Assembly (NCBI RefSeq): GCF_022379125.1
Contig: NC_061519.1
Span: 23,919,101 to 23,983,100 of the forward strand
DNA length: 64,000 bases
DNA from: Scophthalmus maximus
Lineage: Eukaryota
Direction: 5' to 3'
Each line of letters starts with the position of its first letter. The first letter of the stretch is position 1. The notes below the pieces were generated by a model, which saw nothing but the letters and a program-made list of their open reading frames with translations, did not search any database and was not told where the DNA came from. Of this stretch, positions 25,731 through 61,837 are shown in pieces. A program made the translations under genes and the position numbers.

Positions 25731-26123
<393 letters not shown>

Positions 26124-35502: not shown

Positions 35503-36086
35503 CTGGACAACGAAAGAAAAAAGCCTTTCGTGTTGAAACACACCTGGAAATTTCATTTTGGTACATGTAGGGAAAGTTATAGACTAGGCTTTTTTTAAAC
35601 TTGACCCAAACTAGGGACTAAAACTCAAGAGGCCTCTGCCTCTACTACTTCAATTTGAATCAGAATTTTTCTTCTTTTTTTTTAAGTCATTCCATTATGA
35701 CTTCCTTAACACTGTGAAAGTGCAATATTGAATAACTGGAGTCATCAGCAACGGGGAAACAACTTGGTAGATGTGCAACACTAATGAAACAACACATCAA
35801 CTAATCAACATGTCTTAATATAACAGTGCAGAGAACTATGAGGAGAACGAGTTAAGACAACATAAACTAAAAGTCCTTGTGGTTTATAGCTATATAAACT
35901 TTAGGCCTTGAATAGTTTAGTTTCTCTAAGTGGGTGAATAATGTAGAGAGAAAAATTCTCAATCAAGATAAAGCCCATGGTCATTAAACAAATATTAAAA
36001 TGATTGTGTGCGCACAGTACAAAGCTCAAAATGACACGGTGGAGCTGCGTACTGTACCGAGGAGATTAAGGCCAATGAGAACCAAC

Positions 36087-41026: not shown

Positions 41027-42868
41027 CTAGATATTGAGTCCGTCCTCCTGCAGAGCTCGAGATCCCAGACGGCTGCACTCATGCCTTCTGTCTCTGTCGC
41101 TTCCTCTCCTTTGTCCCTCCCTCCTCCGACCCTCTCCATCCTCCCTGCTCTTCCTCCTCTCCTCCTCCTCCTCCCCGTCGCCTCCCGCTCTCTCAAACTG
41201 CCTCCTGGCGCTCTCCACCCTGCTCCCTCGTTTCTCGTCACGCTCTCCTCCGTGGCGACTCCTCTGCGACGCCGACTCCTCCCTGCTCTTCCTCCTCTCC
41301 TCCTCCTCCTCCCCCTCCTCGCCTCCCGCTCTCTCAAACTGCCTCCTGGCGCTCTCCACCCTGCTCCTTCGTTTCTCGTCACGCTCTCCTCCGTGGCGAC
41401 TCCTCTGCGACGCCGACTCCTCCCTTTCCCTCGCCGCCGCCGCCGCTTCGTGACTTCGATGCGACTCTTTCCTCGCGGCGCTTTTCCCGCCGTCTTCTCG
41501 TTTTGTCCATCTCTCCGTCTCTCGCGGTTGATCCCTCGCTTCTTTACTTTCTCTCCTCTCTCCTCTGCTCGCCTGGGCTCTCCAGTCTTTTGCTCCTCGC
41601 TCCTCCTCCTCCTCCTCCTCTGTCCTCCTCCGTCGCTCCGTCCTGTCACTTTCCTTTCTGGCGAGTCTCTCCTTGTCCGTTCTGTGTTCACTCCCCCCTT
41701 CTCCGTCTCGGTTGCTTCTGCTGCTGTGCCTCCCCACGCTCCCACTTTCCTCCTCTTTCTCTCTATTCACCGGTTTCCATTCGTGCCTTATCCCTCTTTC
41801 ATGCGCTCTGCCGCTCTGGCTCCTCTGACCTTCTCTCTCAGATTTCACCCTCTCTAAACTGGGGTTTCCACTCAAGTCTTCTCGCTTCGAATCACCCGAT
41901 TTACTCTCAGCCCCCTCCCGTTCTCTCACGTCCGCCCTTTTCTGTTTTTCCTCCGTCTTTTTATTCGCACCAGCATCTGCTTTTGCCTTGTCCTGCTTGC
42001 TCTCATATTTCTCTTTTACAGCTGTTATTCTGTTCTCGGTTTCTTTGTCTCTTTTGCTTCCTTTCTGAGATTGAGATTCTTTTAAAACTTCCTCTTTAGC
42101 AGCTTTGACCATGTTCTCATTTCCCTGCTCTTTGTCCTGATCTGGTGGCTTCACCAATTTGGATTCAGATTTGCTTTCTTCTTCCGTTTTACTTTCCTTC
42201 TTTCCATCATCTTCTCTTGTCTCCTCCTCCTCCTCCTCCTTGTTGTCCTTTTTCTCTTCATCTCCCTTTTCCTTTTTCTCCTTACTTTTCAGAGTTTCCT
42301 TCTCCAGCTCTTTGTTCTTCCTCTGCTCCTCCTCAATCTTCTTGTCCAGTTTCTCCTCCAGCAGGTCCAGCTCCTGGTCCAGCTCGGCCAGCTTCTTGGG
42401 ATCCGACTCAAAGTTGTCTTCGACCTCCACCTCGATCTCCTCGATCTCCTCGTACTCCTCCAGCTCGATGCCGTCCATGGTTTTCTGCAGCTGCGTCTTG
42501 ATCTTGTTCAGCTCCAGGAGACCGCCTTGAAGGTCTTTGCAAACGTCTCTGATCTTGGCGGCGAATTTGGTTTTGGCGCCTTTGCGGAGCTCGTGGGAGT
42601 CCTTGGCGAGGAAGAAAACATCCAGGGCCAGGAAGAGGGCCGACATGACCCCCGTGGTGACGCTGATGGCCTGGGCAGCTTTGGCGGCGCCGCCTGCGGC
42701 GCCCAGAACCTGCACGGTGCTGATGAGCTTGTCGGTGTTGATCATCAGCGCTTTGCCGGCGCGGCCGCCCTCCTTCATCACATGTTTGATGTTGTGGTTC
42801 ATGGCCTTTCTGGCAGCACTCTGAGAATATTTCTCAAAGTCCCACTCCTGCAGGGTGTCCATTCCTTC
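41027..42868 (-). CDS. ApoL-domain gene, last coding exon. The N-terminal roughly 180 aa carry the C-terminal half of the ApoL domain (EGMDTLQEWDFEKY...LGAAGGAAKAAQAISVTTGVMSALFLALDVFFLAKDSHELRKGAKTKFAAKIRDVCKDLQ). A roughly 430-aa E/K/R/D/S-rich low-complexity tail follows, with stop at 41027
   Basis: 611-aa minus ORF; acceptor cctcctctag|GAAGGAATG at 42868; residues SALFLALDVFFLAKDSHELRKGAKT align with the ApoL family C-terminal amphipathic region (human [33 protein letters not shown]); AATAAA-equivalent tttatt on + strand at about 40821/40861. Confidence 0.8.
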   Translation of the reverse strand, partial: EGMDTLQEWDFEKYSQSAARKAMNHNIKHVMKEGGRAGKALMINTDKLISTVQVLGAAGGAAKAAQAISVTTGVMSALFLALDVFFLAKDSHELRKGAKTKFAAKIRDVCKDLQGGLLELNKIKTQLQKTMDGIELEEYEEIEEIEVEVEDNFESDPKKLAELDQELDLLEEKLDKKIEEEQRKNKELEKETLKSKEKKEKGDEEKKDNKEEEEEETREDDGKKESKTEEESKSESKLVKPPDQDKEQGNENMVKAAKEEVLKESQSQKGSKRDKETENRITAVKEKYESKQDKAKADAGANKKTEEKQKRADVREREGAESKSGDSKREDLSGNPSLERVKSEREGQRSQSGRAHERGIRHEWKPVNREKEEESGSVGRHSSRSNRDGEGGSEHRTDKERLARKESDRTERRRRTEEEEEEERGAKDWRAQASRGERRESKEARDQPRETERWTKREDGGKSAARKESHRSHEAAAAAREREESASQRSRHGGERDEKRRSRVESARRQFERAGGEEGEEEEERRKSREESASQRSRHGGERDEKRGSRVESARRQFERAGGDGEEEEERRKSREDGEGRRREGQRRGSDRDRRHECSRLGSRALQEDGLNI

Positions 42869-43407
42869 CTAGAGGAGGACAGAGGGTCAACACAGTCCCA
42901 GAGAGGTTAATTCTTTTTTTTTTAAAGACACATTCATTTCAAAACTGTTACTACTCGGCATTATAGCACTCTTTCCCAAAGATTTCTGACCATAAAAGAA
43001 AAAAAGAGTCATCCGGAGATGACCAGCCAGCAGGGTTAATAAGACCCAGATTTATTGCAAAAGTGCATAATTTCAGGATATTTATTTCACATTTCTCAAC
43101 TGACCGACGCCCACAATGGTGCAGAAACGATGACTCAATCATTTGATTGTGTAATTTGTCAAACATAAAACAGCATTACACATCATCACACCTCCCCTGG
43201 TGTTTAGTTTTACTTGCTGTTACTGTTTTACGTCATTGTAAATTTAACATTTTTCGAGTGTCCAACGGCTGGTCGGACAAATCGTTGCCTCAAACTCACC
43301 CTGTGATGGTCCTTTTTAACTATCATGACATTTTAGAGACCAAATCTGAAAAGGTAAAAAAAAAAACAAGCTAATTCTCTTATCTATCTGTGCAACCATT
43401 TCCTCAC

Positions 43408-43822
43408 CTGCACGAACTCCATGCACTCTCTGATGTCCTTGATCTCGTCCTGGTAGTCCTGGATCATCTTCTCCAGCTTCTTCCGGTCCATGTTCGAGTG
43501 AACGGTGTCCGTGATGTTGGCCGTCGCCGAGGCGATGCTGCCCGCCGTCGCCACGCCGATCCCCACGGCCGTGACGATGATGGAGGCACCGAAGGTGAAA
43601 GGTGCCAGGATGAGCCCCGTGATCGTGGCCAAGCTACCCGCGACGCTGGCCACCCCGCCGCCCACGGCGGCCGTCACCGTTCGCTTGTGGAACTGATCCG
43701 AGGCGTCGGCCAGGGCCAGGAGCTCCAGGATGCGTTGCTGCAGCGACGCCCCCCGCTGGTTGAACAGGCGCACGAAGAGGCGAGCTGCCATGTAGACACG
43801 GTCAGCCGCCTGCTCCAGGGCC
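43408..43822 (-). CDS. ApoL-domain gene, penultimate exon: core ApoL domain (ALEQAADRVYMAARLFVRLFNQRGASLQQRILELLALADASDQFHKRTVTAAVGGGVASVAGSLATITGLILAPFTFGASIIVTAVGIGVATAGSIASATANITDTVHSNMDRKKLEKMIQDYQDEIKDIRECMEFVQ)
   Basis: Acceptor ccctgcag|G at 43822, donor CAG|gtgagg at 43408; Gly/Ala/Ser-rich hydrophobic hairpin LAD..HK..T.A.V.G..G..G...T..GL.LAP.T.G.S...TA.GIG is diagnostic of ApoL family (Pfam PF05461) membrane-insertion region; joins last exon in frame (VQ|EGMDT). Confidence 0.8.
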
Positions 43823-44491
43823 CTGCAGGGAGACGGAGAGACGAGAGCTGTGAGGGACGGACACTCAAGAGATAAAAGGTCTCAAACACACAAGTCTGAC
43901 AAACAGCAGTCGATTAATCAATCAGTTTGTTATAGCTGGCAACATTTCGAACATTGTTTCAGTCATTTTCGAAGAAGTACTAGAAAATTCCACATATTCT
44001 CTGGTTGTTTACCAACTTGAAAAAATGACTTCACAGAATTTATCTGTTTTCCCAATTTAAGTAATTTTTGGGGGGAAGTTGGTAGACAATTTTCTTTTTT
44101 CTCAAAAGGCAAAATTTGCAGAATCCATTTTGTTAGATATGATAATGAACTGAATTGGATTTTGGAGCATTGGTCGGATTAAGCAATTGAAGATGTCACC
44201 TTGGGCTCTGGGAAGTTTTGACTGACACTTTTTTCAATGTTAATTGATATTTTGTCGACCAAATGATCAACAGACATGAAAATAATCATCAGTTGCCACT
44301 GTACCTTTACGCATATGCCCCAAGTGACAGTTGCAGGTGGACACAGGAAGACATGAATATAAATAAATATTGGCATTTATTGTTTGGCAAAGAAATAGAT
44401 AGAGACAATTAAGAAATCCCCAAATTGCCAATTTTTTTTTTTTTAAGACAATAATTAAAAAAATAAAATAAATAAATAAAACTATAATTAC

Positions 44492-44543
44492 ATTTGCTCG
44501 TCTTCCTGCTGGAAATTGGACGTCTCGTTCCATTCTGTCCAAC
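44492..44543 (-). CDS. Candidate bridging exon ((G)WTEWNETSNFQQEDEQ(M)), supplies AT of the Met codon completed by G at 43822
   Basis: Acceptor gtttccag|, donor CAAAT|gtaatt; with a 1-nt carry-in gives an open frame and restores the frame of the ApoL-domain exon. Confidence 0.45.
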
Positions 44544-44664
44544 CTGGAAACGGGCAGCAACAAAAATACAATAAGTATAATTCATAAAATACATAAAAAA
44601 AGACACATTTATATATATTATATATATATATATTACAAATAAACAGTGAGAACAATCACACTTG

Positions 44665-44704
44665 CCTTTCACCGTGTTCCACCACTCTATCAGCTCATCA
44701 GTCT
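44665..44704 (-). CDS. Candidate exon ETDELIEWWNTVK(G) with GC-AG donor
   Basis: Acceptor ttgttttcag|GAG; donor AAAG|gcaagtg is the textbook GC-donor consensus (AG|GCAAGT); phase 1 end matches next candidate exon. Confidence 0.45.
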
Positions 44705-44766
44705 CCTGAAAACAAAGACATGTTATCCACGAAGAGAAAACTGATGTTCTCGTACATATCAAGCAC

Positions 44767-45011
<245 letters not shown>

Positions 45012-45289
45012 CTGGAGAACCAAATACAACAAGGACACGACTTTTAACACACGGTTCTGAATCTTTGAACTCTCGTACTGTTCTAGTTTGATTTAGATTT
45101 CTTTATTTTGTTTTTGTTATTTTGTCGACCACACACCGACGTTCCTTTTTTCCTTTTTTGAATGACAGGCTGATAACATATGACTACGTTTAAAAAGATG
45201 GTCAGAGTTTTTGACAAAGACTCTGTTGATATTATTTCTATAATATTTCTTTCTGTACATCTATTTTTTATAATATCCTTATGACCAAC

Positions 45290-45352
45290 CTGTGCCGGGT
45301 TCAGCTCCTGCATCTCCACAGCCTCCTCGATGAGAGACATCTCATCTGCGAA
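45290..45352 (-). CDS. Candidate 63-nt phase-0 exon FADEMSLIEEAVEMQELNPAQ (acidic, B-like)
   Basis: Acceptor tttttgaag|TTC, donor CAG|gttggt; open 21 codons. Confidence 0.4.
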
Positions 45353-45595
45353 CTTCAAAAACCATTCATGGAAAATGAAAAAATAAATTCAAAAAGTGGA
45401 CGAAGATCAAATGTAGAAACAGGATATATTCATCCGAGTCTTTTATTAACTTTTTATCCCCAACTAACGTATAAAAATGCAAAAAACTTTTGAAAGTAAC
45501 ATGTTCAGCATGTTCATGTTTATGTTCTTTGATGCAGTTAAAGAACAGGAACATGGAGCAAAACAGCAAAGTGAGACCGAGGAATCACTACGCAC

Positions 45596-45649
45596 CTGAG
45601 TGGTCCTGGGTATTTTGGGAAGAGTTTTCTTGATTCGGAACGACACAAC
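45596..45649 (-). CDS. Candidate 54-nt phase-0 exon VVSFRIKKTLPKIPRTTQ (degenerate A-type: SFRIKKTLPK vs FSGMFKKSPK)
   Basis: Acceptor tttcttcag|GTT, donor CAG|gtgcgt; 18 open codons. Confidence 0.5.
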
Positions 45650-45785
45650 CTGAAGAAATAAAAAGAAGAAAACATCATGTTTTGCAGCTCAAACGCAGCA
45701 CAGCAACTTGTGCTTATATCATCTGTTGAAATAAATGCCATGTTTTCGGTATTTCTGTCATTTTTCCGAGTGAGCGACGACTCAC

Positions 45786-45857
45786 TCGTCTTTTCTTCTT
45801 GATCGTCCTCCTGCGTCTCAGCCCTCCTCCCTCTGGCGCCTCCACGTCCACGCTCTC
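45786..45857 (-). CDS. Candidate 72-nt phase-0 exon ESVDVEAPEGGGLRRRRTIKKKRR (degenerate A-type)
   Basis: Acceptor ccgttgcag|GAG, strong donor CGA|gtgagt; exactly 24 codons like canonical A exons. An alternative read-through would give a stop at 45714 (possible terminal exon of a separate array gene). Confidence 0.5.
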
Positions 45858-47431
45858 CTGCAACGGAAACCCCAAAAACATTTTGTTCAACAGCAGCAGA
45901 GCAACACGCAGGTGATCCCGCGAGGTTATCGCCTTAACCAGCTCACACAGCAACTCTCTTATTATACTATCATCATTTTAAAATGATTTATCTTTCAGAA
46001 TTTCTCTCTGTATCCATCATGAAAACAGTAGAGAATGTGAAACTCAAACCTTTCAAATCAAATAACTATGTATAGAGAGCAGAGGACTGGAAATTCAAGA
46101 AAAATTCTATTCCTCACTCTAATTATTCGACTTAAACGAGATCTCACACATCTCAGCGTTGATGGTACCGTACCTGTGGTACCACAGTTCTGGGCGTCCT
46201 CCTGAACATGCCGGCAAATCCTCCTTTTGTCTCCTGTCACGATGGAAAATCACAAAACATTTGCATGAGTCACAAGAAAGATAAGAAAACTTCCTCATTC
46301 ATCTAAACAGGTTAACACACTGAACACGACGCTCACCTTCGGGGCGTTTGTAGCTTCAAGAAGATTCTCAGTACTGGCGGAAGATTCTCCGTGTGCTGAC
46401 TGATCCTCCCGAAAAGCCATGAAATAAAATAAAAACATGCCATCAATTAGTTTAAAAGGTTTTTATTTCAGTAAACTGAAAATACCGATGTTGAAAATGT
46501 ATTTTGAACGTTCACCTGCAGAGAATCTGGTCTAGTCTCCCATTTCACAGCAGGTCTTGTCCCGTTATTGCTCATTTTAAATCTCATTTAAAATGCTACG
46601 TCTTTGATACAATTCAGGCTGATTCTATTCCATGATCATATTAAAACGTATCATTAGGGCCCGAGCCACTGGCAAGCATTGCCAGGCGAGGACGTATTGC
46701 AATTGAAAGAAATATTATTAATTCACGCTGCGACCTGCCCGAAAATCTGCACACGCATCAGAACCGGTGAACAATTTTGTATTTAGGGGTCTCGGGCATT
46801 GGCCTGCCAAAATGACTGGATAGAGCCCCTTACCACAATTATTCCCTAGCCTTAGAATTGATGTAGATCGACAAAATCTTGTTATCTTATTGTATTTGTG
46901 TCTTATTTCTTAATAAATCATCTTCTTTGAGTGTTGCTTTCCTTTGCCTCGAGTGCAAAGCACATTGGCTCGACTCCTGTTGTTTATTAATCTGCCATAT
47001 AAATACATTTATCTGGACATCTAACGCTCTGCGAGTCGCTTTCCTCAAACATTTGACTTCAAGAAGCTGCAAAGACAGAAAAACCTGGCTTTTTTATGAA
47101 AATTCATCTTTTCTCTGGAGTTTTTTGTGTTTTTGTTCGTGTGGTCGACCGATCGGAGGCATTCAAATATGTGCAGGGAACAAAACATGATGGTGAAAGC
47201 TCAATATTCGCTCCGTCAGCTGCATCCACAGACGTGGAGAAGCTCTCACCTCAGCAGCGTCGGCCAGACTGTCCCTGCTGGAGGACAGTTCCTCTGAGCA
47301 ATTGAGTGGATCCTGGAGAAATACATTTGGGAGGCATTCAGGTGGGTTGAATTTGATGATTCATACAATCATGATCATCTTAACAATGTAAATGAGAGCT
47401 TCAGCGGACGTATGAACAAATCCGGTTTCAC

Positions 47432-47503
47432 CTTAGTAGCGACGGAGCGCGGAGCCGGTTTGGGAGACTTCTTGAAGATCCCTGCGAGTCCTCCAGTCTT
47501 CTC
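47432..47503 (-). CDS. Array exon, A-type: EKTGGLAGIFKKSPKPAPRSVATK (72 nt, phase 0)
   Basis: Acceptor gtgtgtcag|GAG, donor AAG|gtgaaa; coordinates verified base by base. Confidence 0.65.
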
Positions 47504-50500
47504 CTGACACACGTGCAAACATCCACACATTAATAAATCAACAATCGGTAGCAGATAAGAAGGAGACAGGCTGATATTGTGATCGTCAGATTTTCTTTTT
47601 TACCTTCGATGTGTTTGCCTCCAACAGATTTTCGCAACTGGCAGATATTTTCTTCTCCTCGCCTGTGTTCGATTCCTGAACAGGAAATTAAATTGATTAT
47701 ATGCTATAATAATAATTATAATAATAATATAAACATTCCGTGAAGATTATTACTGTACCTCATCTGCTGTTCCCTCTGCTGGTTTCTTCTTAAACATCCC
47801 ACTGAAAATACTCTTCTCCTGAAAACGTTAAACGCAGACACATCAGGTTTGACTGTCATAGATAAATTACAGTACAATTTAAATTTTGTGGCATGCTGAA
47901 ATTTTTTTGCATATTTGAGTATACATGTTTGTATGTACGTGTTACTCTCCGTTTTACTCTGCCCTGTAATATTTGTACTCTTATATTTCTTTCCTATTTT
48001 TATGTGATCTTCAAACTGAGTTTAATTGTTTCCTATTATTTAACTTCACTTCTTCATTATTATCTCTAAAAGATAGTGCCATCTAAATATAGTTTTATTA
48101 TTATTATTATTATTATCTATGTTGATGGGGGAGTTGTCAAGTTTTATTAAAGTTGTGTGGCTCTAATACCCTAAATCTGATGTTTTCCGAATAAGAAAGA
48201 AACATCAGCGCAAACTTCAGTTTGCTTTTCAAACGCACAGGAACAGTTGTGTTGCACGATTCACCGTATTAAAACATGTGGCGTCATTTCACAGTGCTGA
48301 CATTTCAGATCTGGTTGAATAACCAACATTTCTCGACACATCACCTTGGTGTTGGTGTTTTCGGACAGACTGTCGGTACTCGCCGACAGCTCCTTCTGCT
48401 CCTCTTTGTCCTGAATAAAGAAAAACAATGGTCAGTTGGTAAATATGTGTCCGCACAGACGAGGATAATAAGAACATGAAACTAGTCGTGCTCTCACGTC
48501 TGCAGCAGCTTCATCTCCAGTCGCTTTGGGAGGTTTCTTGGGAAGAAGTCCACTGAAGAGACCGCCTTTCTCCTGACAAACACAAAGAGACACGCGTGGA
48601 TGGATTACGTTCCACCACTACTGTACTATGGATGGGTGCAAAAAACAACCACAAAGGGGGGGGGGTCCTTTCACATGTCTGTGCCTGTTGACTCATAATT
48701 GGTCCGTGTGGTGATGAGAAATGACTCTACAGTCATCAACCTGGTTTCATTTTGGACAGCGGCTTGCGAGGAGAATAAAAAGCATAATTCAAAGACCAAA
48801 CGCAGCTGATGAACATGTTTCCAAGCATCCTGTCAAATTGTTTTCTGCCTTTCAGGCATCTCAGCACACCTTTAAAAAAAAAAAGAAAGAACTAGCGTGT
48901 AGTGTGTTGAAACATGCTCTGACCTGTTACTTTACAACCTCAGATTCACATTATTGTCGCGTGTTCGAAATGGAGCTGTGTATAATTTAAAAAGTCTTTC
49001 AACACAAAATGCATGGTTTAAAGTAAAGAGAGAAGATCAAGACACGATTTTCCTAATGCATCTATATAAGATGAACATTCAGAGGAAGATGCTGCTGAGT
49101 GAAGAAGGAGATGATGAAGACGAGTTTTTGACAAACGATAACTTATGAGTGGTTATGACGGAGGTCGTCAGACACTGACCTCGTCAAACAGGTTGTCGAT
49201 GCTGGATGATCTTTTGAAGATGCCGGCCAGGCCTCCCTTTTTCTCCTGAAACACAAACTGCAGTTACTCCAATATTCAGAAATACTCAGTTTTATCGATC
49301 TTCACTGATACATTCAGCGAAAGAGAGAAAATCCAGAAAGCGACTTTGTTTCCGCGTGAACCACACAAGGACAACAACACAAGTGGATTTTCAAAGTTAG
49401 ATATTTAGTAAGTGAAAAATATAGTATTTTAATTTTATTTGACCCTTGAAGTTATTTTACAGATTAATAATTTACAAACAAACATGTTCAGGTTAATAAA
49501 ATAGGATATGATATGTCCATAACACAACATAGATTTCCAAATAGAATAGAATCCCAAATCTTTATTGAACATTTTAACTATTTTTCTAGAATCAGGTTAA
49601 ATTTTTCATAATTATTAGGCATCAATTTGCTTTAACAGTCTTGTTTTTAAATACAGATACTTACTTTGAACAAATGTTTACATACTATTATATGTCTTAT
49701 TTATAATTATATGTATACATGGAAGAAACTGTGTAATGTAAACTTTTTCTTTTTTATTTTGCTGATAATTCTTCTCTTATTTGTATTTTAAAGTATCTTA
49801 TAAGTATTTTTCTACAAGCATTAGTACTTTTGCTTAAGTAAAGACTCTTCAGCCACTGAGAAAGGATGTGAGTGTTTTCATCTTGAATAAGGTCCAGTTT
49901 AATGTGTTGGATACTTTGCTCTAACATACTTATTTTCCATTAATTCTTCTTTAATATTCAGGATTTTTTCTCTCTAGTTTTTGTCTTTGTAACTTTTTTT
50001 TATAAAGTGCAGCTGAATGTTGACCAGAACTAACAGGAAGCAGCAAACACATCAAAAACCTGTTTCTACAATCTGATTTGTCCAGAGGAGAGTGAGTGAA
50101 GAAAGGTTCTAGTTTGTTTGTCAGTCGCACCTTCAGGACGGTGGTGTCAGTCAGATTCTCACAGCTCCCCGACAACTGTTTTTCTTTGTTCCTCTCCTGC
50201 TCCTGAATTCGAACCAGAGAAGAGTCAAAGAGTCAATATCAGCTCCATCCTCTGATGATTTTAGATTGTTTATTCTTATTTTCATGCCTCTGGTTCATTC
50301 TCAGTACCTTCTCCGCTGCGCGCTCCGCTGGCTTCTGCGGCTTCTTGAACATGTTGCTGAAAATGCTTTTCTCCTACAAAATAATATTGGCGTCGGTGAA
50401 CATTTCTGAAGACAGTTTTGTCTGCAGGTGTTGTGTGCCGCATTGGACCTCGCTCACCTTGGTGGCGTTGTTCTCCGACAGGTCGTCGCTGCTGGTCGAC

Positions 50501-50589
50501 AGCTCGTCCTGGGCCTCGCTTTCCTGAAACAAGATTTTTTTTTAATTCCAAGTGATGCTGGGGGAAAACGAGTGGAAGATTGCGAGGCA

Positions 50590-51660
50590 GTTTGACGCCA
50601 GCTCTGAACAGACGGCGACATCTACTCACCGGCGACTCCGTCTTCTCTCCTGACGCTCTGGGCGTCTTTCTGAGGAGTCCGCTGAACACACCTGCACCTT
50701 TCTCCTGATGGAAACAGACGAGAAAAAGGGCTTCAGGACGTTTAAATATCTTGAGATAAAACTGTGTCACTGACCTGTTTGTTCTCAGATTGTTATTAAA
50801 AAGTTACTAACGGGAAAATCCTTAACTCTAAACCTCTCTTACCTTTTCTCTGATCTCAGACAGACTCTCGTTGCTGGCTGCCAGCTCCGTCTGCAGCGAG
50901 TCTCTATCCTGAAACACACGGAGTCACATAAATGCACCGACGAGTCCCCGCGTCACAAGATAAGAAACCGAACATGTTAAGGAATGTTTTTTTGCTTTTT
51001 TAAATGCAAGAGGTAAGAACAGGGAAGCTGTTGTTAAAAATCAACAACAAAGAACTTATTCAAGAGTGTGTCAAGATGTAATACCGTCACAAAAATGAAT
51101 CATTTGGTCTAAAGGTAATCTAAAGGCAAGGAGCAAAAAGTATCAGGGCCACTTATTGGGGAAAAAAATATGAGATTCAGAAAATGAGGTTGGGGAATTT
51201 TTTGTGGAAAAAAAAGTCATATTAAAAGAAGGAAGTCGTAATTTCACAACAACCAAGTCAGAATATTACGGGAATAAAGAGGTCATTTTAGGCCACGCGT
51301 CATTTTACCTAAGATCAGTAAAGATTAGTCCGTCGCCTGCGTCAAAATGAGGAATGTGGATCATCTTGTTAAGTTATGCTTTAAATAAAGGTTCGGTGTT
51401 ATACAAATGGTGAAATCTCTGAACAGACGGCGACATCTACTCACCGGCGACTCCGTCTTCTCTCCTGACGCTCTGGGCGTCTTTCTGAGGAGTCCGCTGA
51501 ACACACCTGCACCTTTCTCCTCTTTCTACCCACGAGACAGAAAGAGCTTTAGGATGAGACGGACCTTTACATGTTTCAATATGAAACCGTTCCACTGACC
51601 TGTTTGCTCTCCGATAGATGTTCACTGCTGCCTGAGAGCTCATGATCGGGACTTTCATCC
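50590..51660. repeat. Tandem segmental duplication inside the exon array (unit about 830 bp: 50590-51416 roughly equals 51417-51660+), duplicating an A exon and flanking intron
   Basis: Long near-identical string ctgaacagacggcgacatctactcaccggcgactccgtcttctctcctgacgctctgggcgtctttctgaggagtccgctgaacacacctgcacctttctcct present at 50590-50700 and 51417-51525. Confidence 0.8.
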
Positions 51661-54600
51661 TGTAAAAGGAAAAAACCCAAAAAACTGAGTTTAAAAGTTG
51701 TGGTAAACTTTAACTTCTTTATTAAATAATTCTTATAACAATAATTTGTTACTTTAATGGTACAAAATGTATGGAAATTCAAATGTGCAGTGAATCTACA
51801 TCTGTGCACAGATTTGAATCAGTATAAAAAAAATAAAAAAAAACCGCTATCATACAGTGAAGTGTTTAGAGAGGAAAATGGGGAAATCATGTACTTTTAC
51901 GTTGTTATTCCTAATTTCTCACAAAGTCAATCTGGAAATTGAAGTTTCAGATACGAGGCTTGAGAAACTATTCTTTCAAATGTTGAAAGTGGAAACACAA
52001 TGAAGACACGCAGGTCCATGTGTTGACACAGTTACCTCCTCAGATTCAGAAGCGTCCATAGCTTTCGCCGCCTTTTTGAATATTCCACCAAATATTCCGC
52101 CTTTTTCCTGAAACACACACACACACACAATAAAAAAAAAAACCGTGAGCGGCATCGAAGAAAGGGAAAGGGGATTGTTTCGAAGGCACGCTCGACGAGC
52201 TCACCTTGGTGCTGTTCTCAGACAGACCTTCGCGGCTGGCGGACAGCTCGCCGCCTTGAAGCAGCTTTTCCAAAGGGAGAGATTGAAAAGTAGATTATAA
52301 CCTGATACCGATTAGAGGTTTTTACTTGCATTCATCACAAACAGGATACCCAGGATAAGAACTCTATTCAGTCCAGCGTTTCTTCGGTGTTTTCATGACA
52401 AGGGGTTCGGTCACTTTGTCTGAAATATAGGCCAGATAACACTTTCATGAAAAACAACACTTAACCTGCAGAGGGAAAAGAGCAGAGAGACTTTCTCCCT
52501 GTTTCTGGGGCATTCGCTACAGGGACGGTCGACATGGATACCTCATAACTCATTAATCATGATTAATTTATTCCTCATACACACTCAGATTACACCAAAC
52601 TGTAACCCCCTTCCTAAAACTACTGGACCCCTGAAATATCTCTTTAAACCAAATCACACACAAGCTATTTCATACGATCTCCTTTTGGAAACTAATGTGA
52701 TGACTAATGTGATATCTCTTCACTCCCATTCACTGAAACTGTTTGGACCCCCCGCGGGGAGGCCAACCCCTCATGAGGAAAACCTCTGTGATGAACATTA
52801 GTTCAGGGATTCCAACCGGCAGCCTCGTTGTCACAAGGGAAACTTGTTGTGCAACGTTCAGAACAACTCCTGATCTACTGGAGTAGCTGAGCAGGAAACG
52901 CAGGAGACGCTTCTCACTTTCTCGTCTGCAGGTTTGGACGGCTTCTTGAACATTCCACTGAACGCACCTCCCTTTTCCTGCAAAACAAGTTGTTGTGTTT
53001 TAGGTTACTTCTTCCCAACAATTCCTGTATAATATCTGCAGGATTTCACACACACACACACAAAAAAAGCAAGCAGTATTCATAAGTTGAAATCAGATTG
53101 ACAGACACATTTCGAAAGGCTCCAGAGAGCGTTTCTCACGACCACACTGACCTTGGCGTGGGCCGCCTCCGACAGACTGTCGTTGCTCGCCGACAGATCT
53201 TTATGTGCCGACAGGTTCTCCTGGAACAACAGACCAAAAAGTGTCAGAAACAAAAAAACAGTAGGAGCAAAGATCAAAGGTCAAGTTCAACAAGAAGAAT
53301 ATCGTCTAACACAAACACATTTTCCAAGATGTCTCCACAAATAATAGAGCTAGAAAGTTAATCTGAATCTTATATAGATCATAAAATGATACCCCATCAT
53401 ATATTGTACGATAAGTGACGTCATGCATAGTTAAAAAATGCACTATATAGGACTGTAAATACGATTTGAATTATAAAGATCAAAAAATTATTTATGATCA
53501 TATAGTATGAATGACGTCATCAGTACAAATCTCTATGAAGTTGCCTTATCACTATATGAATAAGTTAGCATTGCCTGATTGGGGTGTGTACAGTGTGTGC
53601 AGGGTATGAATCGCCCCTTCGATGCTTTACATGATCTAATCTAGCTCCATGATAAACGACTATTTACTGTGAGTTCGCAGTTTTTGTTTGTTTGTCACAG
53701 AGAATAATTTGGGACATTTGGGGGCAGTTGCCCGTCTTTGCCAGGTTCATAGTCCAGCCTTGATTTACGGCAAAGATAATAAATGGAAATATTCTTGCTG
53801 AAAGAAAAGGATGGTCGTGATGCTTTGTATACTGTATATGGTGTCATGTACTGTAAAACATGGATCACAAGATAGATCGATGTGTATATATATAGATATA
53901 TATATATCTATATATATATAAAAACACACCCACATTGATGATAGATTAAAACGTCTGGTGAACAAAGTGTAATGAGAAAAGTGGTGTGACCTGTTTTAAC
54001 TTTGATAATCAATGAAATAAGAGGGTATGAGTCAGATGACTAGCCCCTGGTCTCCTCCTCATTTAGGGAGGAAACTGTTTCGCTCTTCCTCCTTTCCACT
54101 GAAACCCGCGTGTCATGGGTGTCATGGGACGTGCTGCTTTTTGGGCAAAATTCAAAAGGAGTGACGACCGCACCCAAACAGCTCCAACCGGCCCCCCGAG
54201 CCAGATTAGCTCTATGATGTCACCCAGTTGTCACGCAGCACAATGAAGCAGCGGTAATGTGCATTGCCGGTTGAGAGCATCTCCATGGAAACTATGCGGA
54301 AGCTGTACCTCTCCGGTTGTTCTCGGAGTCTTTCTGAGGAGCCCGCTGAACAGACCAGCTTTCTCCTGCAGGACGCAGAGAGATCATATTGAAAGCAAAC
54401 TGACTTGACTTGAATCTTCATTGTTTTGTCACGGTTCGACTCGTGCGACTCACCTTGTTGTCCGACAGGCTGTCGGTGCTGGCAGAGAGTTCGCCGTGCA
54501 GCGGCTCCGCGGCCTAAAACCACAACACACAAAAAATGTGACTCAACCACTGTGAACATGAACGCAGACCTGAAACCAGTCACCAGAAACAACAGACAGA

Positions 54601-54865
54601 CAGACGCAGCAACGTGTTTCCACACGTCGCACAAAAGCCTCCTTACTGCAGATCTCGTGTTTACAAGCGGCGGATCGAGCGGATCAAGTGTTGTTACATG
54701 TTACGTAACAACATTGTTTGGAAGATTGGAGGAATCTCATGCAGCTCCTGCAGCCAGAGAACATGTTCAGAGGCTCTTTTTTTTGGTGCCTTATTTTGAA
54801 ATGAAAAACATAATTAAAGCCAAGGACGAAATGCAAAAGACTTCAAAAGTAATAAAAAACATTAC

Positions 54866-54937
54866 CTCCTCCAGTCGTGGGCCTTCGGACATTTTGGGAG
54901 ATTTCTTGAACATCCCACTGAAAACGCCTCCTTTCTC
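54866..54937 (-). CDS. Array exon, A-type: EKGGVFSGMFKKSPKMSEGPRLEE (72 nt, phase 0)
   Basis: Acceptor gtatcag|GAG, donor GAG|gtaatg; coordinates verified. Confidence 0.65.
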
Positions 54938-55116
54938 CTGATACACAAAGAAAATATTACACGCCGACATAAAGTTTGAAGCTCATTAAAAATCATGCAG
55001 GTACTTATAAAGCTTTATGGGTGGATTATATTGTATACAGATGAGGGACAGTTAGGACTTTTACAGAAAATCCTTTCCAGTTTGCAAAAAAAATCTTAAT
55101 TCTAAACCTCTCTTAC

Positions 55117-55182
55117 TTTGTCTTTGCTCTCGGACAGACTCTCTGTGCTGGCTGCCAGCTCCATCTGCAGCGACTCTTTATC
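55117..55182 (-). CDS. Array exon, B-type: DKESLQMELAASTESLSESKDK (66 nt, phase 0)
   Basis: Acceptor gtgtttcag|GAT, donor AAA|gtaaga; near-duplicate of exon at 50830-50895 (DRDSLQTELAASNESLSEIREK). Confidence 0.65.
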
Positions 55183-56211
55183 CTGAAACACAAGGAGTCA
55201 AATAAATGAAGCAAAAGTGACGTCAAAGCGCCGACCCGTCTGTTTCAGATCGGTCATCAATCATAAGAACGGAATGTTAAGGAATGTTTTAAAATGCAAG
55301 AGGTACAAAACAGGGAAGCTGTTGTTAAAGATCCACGACAAAGAACTTATTCAAGTGTGTGTAAAGATGTGAGTCCATCACATTATAGGAGAAAAAGTCA
55401 TTCAAAAAAGAAGAGTCATACATGATTGTCTCGATCTTAGAGAAGAAATATCAAAGACGGTGGGGTAAACCTAAAGTATTTATTGGCCATAAAACATAGT
55501 TAAAGAAAGAATAAAAAAAAAATCTTAATCCACATCCGCACCAAACGTTAAGGAGTTCGTTCCCCATGTTCCCTCCGCCGAGTCTTGTGAAAATTGGTTT
55601 TGTAATTTTTGAAAAAATAGTCCAACAAACAAATACGACAATCAGACGCGGGTGAAAACATAAAGAACTTTCCTTGGCAGATGTAATAAACTGTATTTTA
55701 CTCTCCAACATATTCACACGTTGAACTGAAGCTATATAAAAATGAATTCATGACTCCGACAGTAGAGGATTAAAGCTCTTATTGGTCCGGACACATTCGA
55801 CCTCTACTTCACCATGTCTGGTGACGGCGTGGAGAATATTTGTTTTAGCAATGTTCAAGATTTGGACATGATCACCCGTCACTGTACCTGCCCAGGTGGC
55901 CCCTCCACAGGGACCTTGGGAGACTTGCGGCGAATCCCGCCGAAAAATCCTCCTTTGTCCTGGTGACGTCAAAAGGGATGAATTCACGCACGTTCACAAT
56001 GATTCTAATGTTGCATCATAATCATGTCCTGCCAACTCACCTTCGAGCTTTCAGTCAGATTTTCATTGCTGCCCGACGCGTCATCGCGTAGAGACCGTTG
56101 GTCCTGAAACACACAAACGGACAAGTTCAATGTGACGATCACGTCGCAGGGTAAAAAATGACGTCAATTTATGTCACTGCACACAAACTGGCATGTTTCA
56201 GCCGTCACCTC

Positions 56212-56283
56212 GTCAGCCTGAGCAGCATCTGCTGCTTTCGGAGTTTTCTTGAACATCGCGCTGAATATTCCTCCCTTTTCCTG
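56212..56283 (-). CDS. Array exon, A-type: EKGGIFSAMFKKTPKAADAAQADE
   Basis: Acceptor gatttcag|GAA, donor GAG|gtgacg. Confidence 0.6.
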
Positions 56284-56368
56284 AAATCATGAACAGATTC
56301 ATCCTGATCAAGCTCGGGTCTGTGTGGCCACTGCGACGGAAGATGAACGCTCATCTCTGCCGCTCACC

Positions 56369-56434
56369 TTGTTGCCGTTTTCAGACAGACTGTCGCTGCT
56401 CGCCGACAGCTTGCTCTGCGCGCCCAGACTCTCC
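56369..56434 (-). CDS. Array exon, B-type: ESLGAQSKLSASSDSLSENGNK
   Basis: Acceptor gtcgcag|GAG, donor AAG|gtgagc. Confidence 0.6.
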
Positions 56435-58261
56435 TGCGACGTCAGAGGGACGTTCACAAAAAAACGTTATCGGCCAAAGTGAAATTTAAACATGGACAGG
56501 CTTAATTAAACATATTTTGCAAAACGGCAAACTGTTATTTTGACATAGTTAGACGCAGAAAGCTATTTTTTTTTTCCCAGCTCACCTGCGGAGGCGTCTC
56601 ATCCGCCGGTTTGTCGGGTTTTTTAAAGAGGCCAGCGAAGAGGCCTCCCCTCTCCTGTGAGCAAATGTGCTTTTAGAAATGTACTGTTACACACACGGAT
56701 GGAATCTGCTTTTGTCACTGTTAAAAAAATACAGAATTAAACACAAGGGTCTTTTTTGTTTATACACATTTTGTTGCATTTGATTCAAACAGAAGCTTTT
56801 TTTTTTTTTTAACTCAAAACACTCCAAACTTGTTCTTTGACTCTTTTACCCTGCACACAAATGACCCTTGTGCTTCTCGTTTCCTCCCCGTGAACGGCAC
56901 CGTGTAGTTTCTGAAGCCGAGTTAACGCGCCACTCACCTGGGACAGTGCAGATGTTTTCTCCTCCACCTCTGCATCTTCGCGGTCACTGTCCGCTTTGCT
57001 GACCTGGCGGCGAACACATCAACCCCGAGGGAACAGGCTGGATGAGTTGAAAACTTGAAAACATGAAAGCATGAAAGCTTGACAACCACGGCAGAAGGCT
57101 GGACGTTACCGTTAGTGCAGGAGATAATCTCTCTTTGGGTGTTTTCCGGAACATCCCGGTGAGCAGATTTCCTTTGTCCTGAGGAAACGTGGAGAAAAAA
57201 TGACGTTTAAAAATCCTAAAAACATTTTTTTTTTACAGAAACAGAGAATGCTGAATACTGTATTCCCGCAGATATATATTTGCTCCACATGAAAGTGTAC
57301 ACTGTGAAATCACATCCTAAAAACAATTTCCTCCTCAGCGTTATCTACCTTGAGTGATTCCTTGTGGACAGGAGAGACGAGTGTTTGGCAGTGTTCATTT
57401 GAGCATTTGTACCAATACGGCGATTCACTAATGATTTTAAATATTTGCAGAAGCAGAACTGGCTTGTCAACATGAGAAGTCACGGGTCATCATTTTAATA
57501 CCGTTGCTGTCGATCTCTTACCCGTTTGGGTTCTGGGTTTTTTTCCGGCTTGTTTTTTTCGTTTTCGGTGGATTGTTCCTTGTCTGCGACTCCGTCCTCT
57601 GTGCTGGGAACTGGACTCGGATCTCTGCTGCCCTGAGACAAGAGTCGACAACCTTCAGCACAATATGTATCATCCTGAATTTCATATCAATACAACTTCA
57701 CAAGAGAAGGCGTGCTCATAATTTCACACAGTTTGCATCTCAAACCGTCTCCCGCCTTCTGCCTCACTATTTGTATTTAGAGCTGCCGAGTTGAATTTAC
57801 AGTTAGTTCTCTCTATGTTTTTTGTTTCTTTTTCTTGGGGGATTAACAGCAGAGGTCCCGGGCTGGATGTGAGCCAGAGACATGGAGATTAAACCTCTGA
57901 GCCTCCTACCATGGCAACCCCACAGTCAGAGCGTAAGAGTCACAGACGGAAAGTAAACGCAGCAAAAACGCCGGAAGGTAAAAGTGACACTGCAAGAGAG
58001 GAACACTTTTTGTGTGAAATTGTAAAAATAAATAAATAAATAGACTGCATTAATTCTTCGATAGGCAGAGCTCAAAGTAGAGCTGAGGGTGAAATATTAT
58101 CGTGCCACATTCAAGTGGATAGAGTACAGACCGTTTTTCATTTTATGTGAGAATCAGTAAAAAAAAGAGATTAAAGTCAGTCACAGCGATCCACCCAGGC
58201 TCCATCCATCAACCACAGGAAAAACATTAGAACATATCTTTCAAATAAAATAAAATACAAG

Positions 58262-58590
58262 CAAATATCAAACCTAGCGACCACCACCGTCAACACCACC
58301 GTCAACACCACCGTCAGCACCACCATCACCACCACCACTACCACCACTACCACCATCAGCACCGTCAGCACCTTCAAAAGCGTCAGCACCACCCTCACCA
58401 CCATCTCCACCACCATCACCACCTTCAACACCACCGTCAACACCACCATCACCACCGTCCACACCACCGTCAGCACCACCATCACCACCGTCCACACCAC
58501 CGTCAGCACCACCATCACCACCGTCAACACCACCATCACCACCATCAACACCACCACTACCACCGTCAGCACCGTCAGCTGAACAAGGAG
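58262..58590. repeat. ACC/GGT-rich minisatellite (12-15 bp units caccaccgtcaacacc / caccaccatcacc), about 330 bp
   Basis: Tandem periodic units; on the minus strand reads (GGD/GGV/GGA)n in one frame and (VVL/TVV)n in another; preceded by a plausible minus-strand acceptor cttgttcag at about 58590. Confidence 0.8.
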
Positions 58591-58761
58591 TTCTGGTTTA
58601 GAAAACCTCGGAAGCTGCAGCCACCACCAGCAGAAAACACAGAACCAGACGGTTCTTCTCTTCGTACCTTCGGTGACGACTTGAACTGCAAACCTTTCAT
58701 CACCCCCTTCAGACCCGCCTGTCAACCACAGTCACATGTCACATGCTGGCGGATTAAGACC

Positions 58762-58908
<147 letters not shown>

Positions 58909-59745
58909 GGTTTGCTGCCAGCAGCCTGTTTGGCTGGAGCGTCGGCAGTTCTATCCTCTTCCTCACAGTCGTGGAACGCGTACGCCTGATGAGAACAAAA
59001 AGAAGAAGAAGAAATTCGGTGAACTGCTGATTCAAAAAATCGACTTCTGCTTTATTTATCTTCTGTGTCTAAAACATTATAGATATACACTGTATTTATT
59101 CCACGCTTTTCTTCGATTTGATGATTCAGCGACTCACCTGATGCTAATGCATATTCACCAGCCAATTTATATCAACACTGAATCATAAACACACACCTAC
59201 TGATCACACACCCACACACGCCTGTTTGCCACCAGAAACCTGTTGAGCATCTTTTTTGCACATTGACACACGTGAATTCATCCTTTCTATACTTTATCTT
59301 ATGAAGGCATTCATATCGATTTTTTTATTCTTACACACACTTTTATTTGATTGTCTCAATAACTACAAATGTACAGGTTTTGAAAAGCTAATAGGATTCA
59401 GGATGTGAGGTGCATGTTTAAGTACACAGATGTTCATCAGTGTGTGTACTGTAAGATGGTGTGCATGTCAAAATGAATGTGGTATTACTCTAAGTTTATA
59501 TACAAATGAAGCAGCCAATGGAAATCAGTTCCTGATTCACTGGCACTAACTATAAAACTGCCCTCCGCTGAATTAACAATTTGTCTCCGCTACCGTACAT
59601 CCTCTCTCATGTCCCTGTAAATACTAAAATTATAAACACACCAGAAACCTTATAAAGTTAACACAACAGTAATGGCATCAACGTGTACAAGGTACATTCA
59701 GGTAATATCTGTTTGACTGTGCAGAGAGGAGCTGTTCTTACGGTG

Positions 59746-59811
59746 AACGTTGGCGTCTTCTCCTTTTGGCTCCGGCGAAACATTCCGGTCAGGACCGACT
59801 GATTGCTCTGC
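59746..59811 (-). CDS. Upstream A-like exon SNQSVLTGMFRRSQKEKTPTFT
   Basis: Acceptor ctctgcag|AGC, donor ACC|gtaaga; 22 open codons. Confidence 0.5.
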
Positions 59812-59849
59812 AGTACCACGACGCACGTGTCAATGACGAGGAAGATATT

Positions 59850-59862
<13 letters not shown>

Positions 59863-59902
<40 letters not shown>
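59863..59902. repeat. (TA)n microsatellite, 20 units
   Basis: Dinucleotide run. Confidence 0.95.
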
Positions 59903-59904
<2 letters not shown>

Positions 59905-59955
59905 CTTCATATATATTTGGTCAGAGGTGGAAGACAGCACTTCCACCTGTGGTAC

Positions 59956-60021
59956 CTGTTTGAAATCCGCTTCATCTTTGGAATCTCCGGCAGCTTCCGG
60001 TTTGTCACTTTGTCTGGACTT
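59956..60021 (-). CDS. Candidate exon KSRQSDKPEAAGDSKDEADFKQ
   Basis: Acceptor cctccgcag|AAG, donor CAG|gtacca; 22 open codons. Confidence 0.45.
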
Positions 60022-60180
60022 CTGCGGAGGAGGATGAGGAAGAGGAAGGACGTTGATCTGCGATTTATAAAAAAACGAGCACGTACAGAAGTAATGTGGT
60101 GTTTTATTGTTTGTGTACCTTTGTGTCCTCAGTGTGTACCCGCCAGCGCTGGCTGTGTCTGCTTGTTGCATCCAGTTCCT

Positions 60181-60199
60181 GCACAAAACACACACACAC

Positions 60200-60248
<49 letters not shown>
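60181..60248. repeat. (CA)n microsatellite
   Basis: Dinucleotide run. Confidence 0.9.
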
Positions 60249-60253
<5 letters not shown>

Positions 60254-60494
60254 CCCAGGAGGGAACAATAACTTTATAAAATGATACTGGAAACAGGAAA
60301 GAAACATGAAACATGAAACCTTGAGTAGCTTTGGGTGGTTCGTTACTGCAACCTGTTCTCACACCAAACTCCAAACTGCAGGCAACGATGACTCACTCCG
60401 ATCTCAATGAAAAAGTCTCGACATAAAGCAAACATAGTCCTATTAATACATTAAACCCTCAGAAACATCAAACATATTTGGGTGTACTGTACCT

Positions 60495-60557
60495 TTTCCG
60501 TGGGTCGAGGTGGAATCACAGGAGTTTCAGACGGATTCTCTTTGTTTCCTTTGTCCT
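60495..60557 (-). CDS. Candidate exon DKGNKENPSETPVIPPRPTEK (PxxP-containing)
   Basis: Acceptor gtgtcag|GAC, donor AAG|gtacag. Confidence 0.45.
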
Positions 60558-61401
60558 GACACAGACGGAAAAAAAGGTTTAAGTCATTTAATATAATTTA
60601 ATTGTTTGGACAATAATCCACATAGTGTAGTAAACATAAGCAGATTCTTAATTAAAATTAGTACAAAGGCCACATATTTAATATGTATATTGATGTTTTA
60701 ATATGAGATGTAAAGCAAATGCATGACCAACTGATTTAGTTTGTCCCTAAATAAATAAATGTCTGGTTGGCTTTAAAATGATATTCTAGATATTCTAGAT
60801 ATTCTCTATTCTGTGATTCACATAATAAAAATTAACAGCAATCTGAAAAAAGCAGTTAATACCTCATTGATTGTGGCTGCTGCTCTTTTCACTCTGTACT
60901 GTGTCTGAGTCCGTTCCTGGAAAGAAAAAAAGAAAAGTTAATAAAAACGCTATCATTCAAACTCGCTAATTCTCCTCATTTTCTCTCAGATCGTTTCAAT
61001 GTCAGTGCTCCACACAGAAATGTTCTAACCCAGAACCTTCTTGCTGTGCTGTGACAGTGCAAACCACTGTGATGCTCCTGATTCAATATTCAATATCTTT
61101 ACAAAAAGGTGTGCGAGTGCAAAAAAAGAGACTTCAGATCTTCTCCACTACAAAAAAATCGACTTAAATGTTCCCAGATGTTTAGGGCACGTCGGCCAAC
61201 CACATCTGCTCCGCGGGGGAGGAACTCTGAGACGCACGGGGGAAAGAACATGGACGAAAAGCCATTTCAGGAAATTACATTTGAAAACCTACAGGCTATG
61301 AAAAGAGCACGAGTGTCTTCAAGGTTGACTGCCACTGTATCGTTTGACTTTGTGTACACAAAAAACCACCGGAGATAAAAAAGACTGTTGGTGTCGGACT
61401 C

Positions 61402-61461
61402 ACGGCGTCTGAAGGTCGCGGCGGCACCAGAGGAGTCGGCTTCTCCGGGTCACTTGTCTTA
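61402..61461 (-). CDS. Candidate exon IKTSDPEKPTPLVPPRPSDA (PxxP-containing)
   Basis: Acceptor tctccccag|ATT, donor GCC|gtgagt; 20 open codons. Confidence 0.45.
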
Positions 61462-61607
61462 ATCTGGGGAGATCATTTCAGAACTCATTATGTACATAAG
61501 CCTCGCAGCGACCTCATGAAGTCATGTAAAGTCTTTTTTTAAACTTAAGCAAACATGCAAGACACGTGATTGACAAATGAAAGTTAGGTTTGGGTTCATT
61601 CCAGTAC

Positions 61608-61634
61608 CCCGGCAGGCTTCGGAGCAGGTTTCGG
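61608..61634 (-). CDS. Candidate 27-nt micro-exon PKPAPKPAG
   Basis: Acceptor ctacag|CCG, donor GGG|gtactg; phase 0. Confidence 0.4.
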
Positions 61635-61789
61635 CTGTAGACGGAGAAACAAACACAAAGTATCAGTAACGTATTATGTTGTGATATATATTAGTATATA
61701 TTATAAAGCATTGTGTTGTGTGCATATATTTTGGTGGGTTGTTTATTTACAGTGGAGCATTTTTTGTGCAACCAACAAAACGTTCTCAC

Positions 61790-61837
61790 CGGCTTTGGTT
61801 TCTTTTTGACTTCTGTCGTCATCATACACGCCTCCAT
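61790..61837 (-). CDS. Candidate first coding exon with start codon: MEACMMTTEVKKKPKP (ATG at 61837-61835; exon itself 61790-61842)
   Basis: Acceptor ttgtttccacag|GC at 61842, donor CCG|gtgaga at 61790; first in-frame ATG in a chain of phase-0 exons. Confidence 0.4.

Follow-up and report, generated by a model that had tools for sequence, protein, structure and literature searches.

The 64,000-nucleotide stretch of turbot (Scophthalmus maximus) DNA analysed here (assembly GCF_022379125.1, contig NC_061519.1, forward-strand positions 23,919,101 to 23,983,100; hereafter the window) carries on its minus strand an apold1a-like gene, whose product combines an apolipoprotein L (ApoL) domain in its C-terminal half with an N-terminal part encoded by an array of alternating small A and B exons. 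Within this array, two A exons (A8 and A9) lie in identical 105-nt tracts spaced 815 bp apart, and the B exon between them (B8) closely resembles another B exon of the same gene (B3), about 4.3 kb away. An initial annotation of the window had read these two similarities as a tandem duplication of ~830 bp that happened very recently and a separate duplication of multi-exon blocks. We propose instead, and consider it probable, that one extra exon pair was added stepwise in this lineage and that a short gene conversion followed. Positions are those of the window throughout, and upstream and downstream are used in gene orientation, i.e. toward higher and lower coordinates, respectively.

The earlier depiction of the region as an array in which A and B coding exons alternate was borne out by our exon catalogue (Table 1). 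Every array exon is 57-75 nt long and in phase 0-0, with AG/GT splice sites. Searches with nhmmer, using nucleotide profiles of the two exon types, returned exactly the catalogued exons and no further full-length pseudo-exons, and in a Pfam scan the A/B repeat was covered by no family. Exon pairs other than those of the two focal matches are 55-80% identical in exon identity matrices, and a general 5-unit periodicity of the array, considered as a candidate, was rejected on the same matrices. The self-comparison suggested in the initial annotation singled out the two focal matches as the strongest non-microsatellite self-matches in 40-64 kb; in the whole masked window, they rank third and fourth, behind two repeats outside the gene. 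Chance similarity does not account for either of them. The other suggested check, a Tandem Repeats Finder run over 40-64 kb, yielded no array-level tandem repeat; its output consisted of microsatellites, one minisatellite and, elsewhere, a coding repeat of 141 bp. With a maximum period of 500, the program could not have seen the 815-bp spacing.

The near-identical repeat of more than 100 nt, with an A exon and its intron flank, proved real: positions 50602-50706 and 51417-51521 are 100% identical over 105 nt. Relative to its first description, the left coordinates move by ~12 nt and the period shortens from ~830 to 815 bp. In gene orientation, the tract comprises 2 nt of the acceptor (AG), the 75-nt A exon, whose peptide (EKGAGVFSGLLRKTPRASGEKTESP) is the one given previously, and 28 nt of the following intron. 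The splice sites of A9 and B8 are good. At A8, the AG directly upstream of the exon comes without a pyrimidine tract (acceptor context gtgggtagaaagAG); an in-frame TAG acceptor with a pyrimidine tract is found 6 nt upstream, and its use would add the residues KE.

Beyond the perfect tract, homology between the two A units continues on the upstream side only, where it is weaker: ~90 nt, reaching to 50797 and 51622, are 74-75% identical and contain indels. The upstream flank of A9 aligned to that of A8 with a score of 45, compared to 14.9 +/- 2.2 for the shuffled null (0/2000 shuffles reached the score), and the homology is specific to this partner, the flanks of twelve other A exons scoring 13-20. 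The flank holds what remains of the 3' end of exon B7, a relic situated in the intron upstream of A9 and still carrying a splice donor; the orthologous B7 exons of other fishes terminate in ...SENKQ, like the relic. The B7-A8 pair, for its part, retains the ancestral upstream context. On the downstream side, past 50601 and 51416, no homology was detected, the score equalling the shuffled null, and the stretch 50798-51416 has no counterpart within 51623-52231. In total, the two periods share homology over only ~200 of their 815 nt (50602-50797 and 51417-51622).

A perfect 105-nt core adjoining a 75%-identical flank bears the signature of a recent non-allelic gene conversion within an old duplicate. 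The change in divergence from core to flank is abrupt (Fisher p=7e-9), and the probability of 105 identical bases at 12% divergence is 1.5e-6. Since every synonymous position is identical, among all 75 exon positions, as are the 28 intronic ones, selection cannot account for the identity. The pattern is one-sided, with diverged homology bordering the core upstream, while downstream identity and all homology end together (50601/51416). A conversion that ended at the edge of homology is compatible with this, though it is not the textbook case. Of the very recent ~830-bp tandem duplication claimed at the outset, the near-identical stretch survives, as the product of a recent exchange between units; the duplicated period does not, for homology does not extend across the ~815 bp and divergence is not uniform along the unit, as a simple tandem duplication would have it.

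The second match, first placed near 50830-51080 and 55117-55370, exists and extends over 50815-51091 and 55090-55382 (blastn, 76.9% over 294 columns, E=6e-54; 76% with gaps, about 90% in aligned columns, 88% in the ungapped blocks). It consists of a B exon with 183 nt of upstream and 28 nt of downstream intron; the long intron piece, previously described as downstream of the exon, lies upstream of it on the coding (minus) strand. The two exons, B3 and B8, are 85-86% identical (10 mismatches in 66). Their neighbours are not specifically related (A3/A8, 64%; A4/A9, 68%), the colinear exon pairs at a ~4.17-kb offset remain at background level, with none being a best partner (A2/A7, 68%; B1/B6, 73%; B2/B7, 68%), and outside 50815-51091 no intron homology could be aligned at the ~4.3-kb offset. 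A ~4.3-kb higher-order repeat of five exon pairs is not what we found, as B3 and B8 alone stand out. The idea that multi-exon blocks ~4.3 kb apart had been duplicated was not upheld, only one B exon with its flanking intron being shared; the apparent block would be a single-exon copy (B3 plus flanking intron), placed between the A copies and taking the place of the greater part of a duplicated B7.

Both B3 and B8 match the B3 unit of Anableps (scores of 72 and 67 vs a null of 19). An ancient intronic element, as a candidate explanation of the intron block shared by B3 and B8, was rejected; in Anableps, only ~28 nt adjoining the exon are conserved. An Rfam scan of 44-60 kb for an intronic small nucleolar RNA or microRNA behind the conserved block found nothing near the gathering score, and a mir-297 match in that scan was a TA microsatellite. 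We also observed that both homology tracts (A9/A8 at 50602 and B8/B3 at 50815) terminate precisely 28 nt beyond the 5' splice site of the exon concerned, which may be coincidence.

As read from the assembly, the 815-bp interval is a mosaic, composed in gene orientation of a segment of 325 nt (segment X), the B3 copy, a short filler, the B7 relic and its intron, and finally the A exon. From the end of the B3-derived segment at 50815, a filler of ~17-24 nt (about 50791/50798-50814) leads to the B7 relic, whose start is at 50790-50797. For segment X, no match was found in the whole window, on both strands, nor in two other fish loci (Dissostichus and Anableps). The junctions are sharp and without flanking homology, and plain unequal crossing-over is therefore disfavoured for the insertion. 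The ongoing unequal crossing-over that had been suggested for the array leaves these sharp non-homologous junctions unexplained. The array is nevertheless prone to duplication, as Dissostichus and Anableps show.

Protein models from Scomber, Anableps, Perca, Pseudoliparis, Oreochromis, Girardinichthys and notothenioids align position by position with our exon list; the array is thus ancient and mostly stable, with near 1:1 positional orthologues in other teleosts. In all compared models, B7 and B9 are separated by just one A exon; the genomic locus of Dissostichus (L001) likewise begins B7-A8-B9-A10, followed by its own tandem copies. Turbot A9-B9-A10 is colinear with Dissostichus A8-B9-A10, introns included (50727-50296 vs L001 8686-9094). 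In the proteins of Anableps, Ilyodon, Girardinichthys and Oreochromis, B3-like exons are confined to the place directly before A4, where they follow A3 or, in the Oreochromis models, B2. From the orthologues, we infer a single A exon between B7 and B9 as the ancestral state; given the exon order and the colinearity, B8 and one A copy are derived in the turbot lineage, with B3 as the donor.

Jukes-Cantor distances, calculated in aligned columns, fall into three levels. The upstream flanks of A8 and A9 differ at 21/83 columns (K=0.31), the B3 and B8 introns at 19/197 (K=0.10), and the perfect core at 0/105 (K=0, 95% upper bound 0.028). Flank and B3/B8 introns differ significantly from each other (Fisher p=0.0012). 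For calibration, orthologous short introns compared with Dissostichus have 47/156 mismatches (K=0.39), and orthologous A exons differ by ~18% between species.

The three levels suggest three events, the order of which we infer as follows. In an old step (K about 0.31), a duplication would have started within or upstream of B7, taken in the short intron and the A exon and reached 28 nt beyond the donor, giving rise to A8 and A9. In an intermediate step (K about 0.10), a 277-nt copy of B3 with flanking intron would have been brought from 4.3 kb upstream and placed between A8 and A9, beside the 325-nt segment X; this new material would have replaced the duplicated B7 except for its last 16-23 nt, leaving the intronic relic with the donor site (the last 5 codons), and the copied exon would have become B8, by which the A-B alternation was restored. 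In a recent step (0 differences in 105 nt), non-allelic gene conversion would have made A8 and A9 identical across the exon and the adjoining 28 nt of intron. The putative mechanism would comprise non-homologous or template-switch joins, then conversion. Only the conversion would be very recent, and none of the duplications. Because all array exons are in phase 0-0, the extra 47 codons are in frame and cassette splicing is possible.

The reading closest to the initial annotation, in which a fresh head-to-tail duplication of ~815-830 bp arose by unequal crossing-over and a multi-exon block was separately duplicated at ~4.3 kb, draws on the 105-nt perfect repeat at 815-bp spacing, on three colinear matches at offsets of 4.16-4.28 kb and on the true multi-exon tandem duplications of the array in other species. 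We regard it as very improbable: only ~200 of 815 nt are homologous, the remainder of the period being B3-derived or without a found source; divergence is sharply bimodal (0/105 vs 21/83); the junctions are non-homologous; and the exons beside B3 and B8 show background similarity only (A2/A7 and B1/B6, as above). It is likewise highly unlikely that the perfect identity stems from an assembly or polishing artefact, or from purifying selection on the exon, rather than from exchange. The tract is known from the assembly alone and is centred on a coding exon, but the identity takes in every synonymous site and 28 intronic bases. Against these readings also stand the B3/B8 exon pair of the same array, which is only 85% identical, and the ~18% distance between orthologous A exons; in addition, the unique flanks of both copies should let spanning reads be placed unambiguously.

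A more serious competitor is a single template-switching event, of the kind described as fork stalling and template switching (FoSTeS) or microhomology-mediated break-induced replication (MMBIR), which would have built the 815-bp insertion (the 3' part of B7 with the A exon, X, and the B3 segment) at once, with a later conversion equalising the A copies. Under this model, the position of the B3 piece and X exactly at the A-duplication junction requires no coincidence; the model agrees with junctions that are all sharp and without extended homology, and its donor lies only 4.3 kb off in the same gene. We nonetheless consider it unlikely, as the A8/A9 flank is more diverged than the B3/B8 introns (K=0.31 vs K=0.10, p=0.0012) and no template for X was found in the window.

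Several points weigh against the stepwise history that we favour. Separate first and second steps require the later insertion to have fallen exactly at the older junction, which is a coincidence, and one complex event is more natural in this respect. The age gap between these steps comes from small samples (83 and 197 columns), and rate variation or an earlier conversion between B3 and B8 could mimic it. Segment X gave no match above shuffled controls in the A7-B7, A3-B3, B3-A4 and A9-B9 introns. For the conversion, besides the dependence of the perfect tract on the assembly, the donor and acceptor copies (A8 and A9) are not distinguishable. Finally, A8 and B8 are predicted exons that could be included in the mRNA, and a hand count of B8 against B3 gives 8 non-synonymous and 2 synonymous differences (omega ~1), which does not establish constraint on B8.

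Table 1. Features of the apold1a-like gene and its exon array in the turbot window
Feature	Coordinates	Strand	Details
Whole gene, teleost apold1a-like, ApoL-domain	41027..61837	minus	Start codon ~61837 (MEACMMTTEVKKKPKP...), stop ~41027-41029 (...LQEDGLNI, stop)
Exon array	46174..57178	minus	16 A (EKGGxFSGMFKKxPK...) and 15 B (...ELSASxDSLSE..K) exons; from exon catalogue, nhmmer, positional orthology
Source segment with ancestral exon B3	55090..55382	minus	Exon 55182-55117, DKESLQMELAASTESLSESKDK; between A3 and A4
Exon B7, relic source	51600..51659	minus	DESPDHELSGSSEHLSESKQ; orthologous to Dissostichus B7 and Scomber B7
Perfect tract, A8 copy	51417..51521	minus	Exon 51519-51445, or 51525-51445 with the better TAG acceptor
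Segment X	51092..51416		325 nt between the A8 copy and the B3-derived piece; source not found
B3-derived segment with predicted exon B8	50815..51091	minus	Exon 50908-50843, DRDSLQTELAASNESLSEIREK; 183 nt upstream and 28 nt downstream intron
Old diverged homology upstream of A9	50707..50797	minus	~75% identical to 51522-51622; holds the B7 relic
B7 3'-end relic and donor	50790-50775	minus	ATCTGAGAACAAACAG followed by GTCAGTG, i.e. codons SENKQ then gtcagtg; stop codons before
Perfect tract, A9 copy	50602..50706	minus	Exon 50704-50630; ancestral downstream context A9-B9-A10

Array turnover is evident in other fishes as well. In Dissostichus eleginoides (L001 8490-10503), three tandem copies of the unit B7-A8-B9-A10, each of ~650-720 bp, are 83-90% identical over their full length; this is what a simple block duplication looks like, in contrast to the patchy 815-bp interval of turbot. 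In Anableps anableps, 463 nt with A8 and B9 are duplicated at an offset of 1948 bp with 99.4% identity (L002 20998-21460 and 22946-23408). The Scomber protein contains an identical A2-B2 pair twice, and Oreochromis has two B3 exons. To judge from these loci, turnover of the array is real, and the duplications in Dissostichus and Anableps are independent of the Scophthalmus event. All three independent duplications (Scophthalmus, Dissostichus, Anableps) include the A8 exon. Whether this exon (motif FSGLL[RK]KTPK...GEKTE) might be a recurrent duplication hot spot, owing to a fragile structure or to selection for copies of the motif, is a speculation that we hold to be quite doubtful; if selection were the cause, the length of the array would have been tuned adaptively and convergently, in a disordered region that is uncharacterised yet conserved across teleosts.

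The turbot array has two further features. The exons A9-B9-A10-B10-A11 are paralleled by A12-B12-A13-B13-A14 (50704-49180 vs 48572-47432) in an ancient three-pair higher-order block, and the two halves share the array-exclusive motifs EKSIFS.MFKK, GGLAGIFK and S.SCENL; since the same order is present in the Scomber protein, this block predates the lineage split. Exon A11 (49245-49180, EKKGGLAGIFKRSSSIDNLFDE) has a weak match to the B profile (E=1.3e-3), its tail resembling the B core, and may be a fused A+B exon. A11 and A12 are not separated by a B exon in turbot, nor are they in the orthologues.

The DNA of the window is eukaryotic and fish-like, and it contains long (AC)n microsatellites. 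The end coordinates of the gene are approximate, being taken from stop-to-stop frames, and its N- and C-termini agree with the orthologues. The ApoL domain matches Pfam PF05461 above the gathering threshold (109.6 bits vs a cut-off of 25.9, E=2.6e-31; profile positions 49-297 of 298). Teleost homologues are proteins of 1,000-1,150 aa, which appear in the sources as apold1a, si:rp71-1g18.13 or apolipoprotein L1-like / apolipoprotein L1 isoform X..., and also under the spurious names claspin-like, titin homolog, piccolo and dao-5-like. The turbot gene is colinear with apold1a / si:rp71-1g18.13 proteins exon by exon, with 84-89% identity in the ApoL half; judged by colinearity over the array and the ApoL domain, it is the teleost apold1a orthologue. 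A search for sister species by which the events could be dated returned nearest proteins that are 84-89% identical even within the ApoL domain.

Other repeats are found within the gene and around it. A 141-bp (47-codon, in-frame) tandem repeat at 41139-41425, coding on the minus strand in the last exon, has 2.1 copies of 96% identity and is located in the E/R-rich C-terminal tail, where the peptide EESASQRSRHGGERDEKRxSRVESARRQFERAGG...EEEEERRKSRE is present twice; no other head-to-tail duplication in the gene is truly young. Two further repeats are probably intronic: an imperfect 9/21/33-nt minisatellite (ACCACCACC...) at 58280-58573, within the gene's 5' part, and, between exons of the middle part, an (AC)85 microsatellite at 44770-44939. 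Outside the gene, we noted a dispersed repeat pair (9577-9928 vs 29206-29578, 72% over 394 nt) and a ~205-bp tandem repeat at 16310-16882. Two open reading frame translations, judged by eye, suggest neighbouring genes: one at 25758-26126 (plus strand) resembles the RNA recognition motif (RRM) exon of an hnRNP-C/RALY-like gene, and one at ~35185-35556 (minus strand) a DOMON-like exon.

The event described here belongs to ordinary repeat-array evolution, in which exon-array duplication and gene conversion are well-known processes. What is new is an example in a gene whose repeat array appears to be undescribed; no paper on "apold1a" was found in the literature searched. It provides a small and clean case of change in a coding exon array, involving duplication, patching with an exon copied from elsewhere in the array and gene conversion, and what had looked like a fresh and perhaps polymorphic duplication of 830 bp is set right. 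For annotators, it is relevant that gene models of the region can be misled by its identical exons and by a relic splice donor. Conserved exon by exon across teleosts and with lineage-specific expansions, the apold1a A/B array is a reasonable system for studying the evolution of disordered-region length.

Non-allelic (ectopic) gene conversion is familiar from tandemly duplicated exons and genes, e.g. globin or opsin paralogues. As in those systems, a perfect tract, here of 105 nt, lies within older diverged paralogous sequence and takes in synonymous and intronic sites, and the partners are ~0.8 kb apart on the same strand. Unlike in those systems, the transition from identity to divergence occurs at one boundary, the other being the end of all homology.

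Amplification of exon blocks is exemplified by the triplicated 8-exon block of nebulin, the two-exon kringle IV-2 repeats of LPA, the PEVK exons of titin and the Olduvai triplets of NBPF. In common with these, the array consists of small symmetric phase 0 exons that encode a repeated peptide module, and it grows by duplication of exon groups, with copy number differing by lineage. In contrast to them, there is no uniform higher-order unit in the window, most exons are old and have 1:1 teleost orthologues, and nothing in the array is young except a single composite exon pair and a single conversion tract. Mammalian APOLD1, a short protein, is not known to carry an A/B-type array; the turbot gene resembles APOLD1 and the ApoL family (PF05461) in having a bona fide ApoL domain in the C-terminal half. 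The reported amplification of the Piccolo zinc-finger domain in teleosts (PMC3484663) is comparable in that a coding module of a single gene has multiplied, specifically in teleosts and to an extent that varies among lineages, although it concerns another gene and a folded zinc-finger domain, whereas the A and B units are short, probably disordered peptide motifs.

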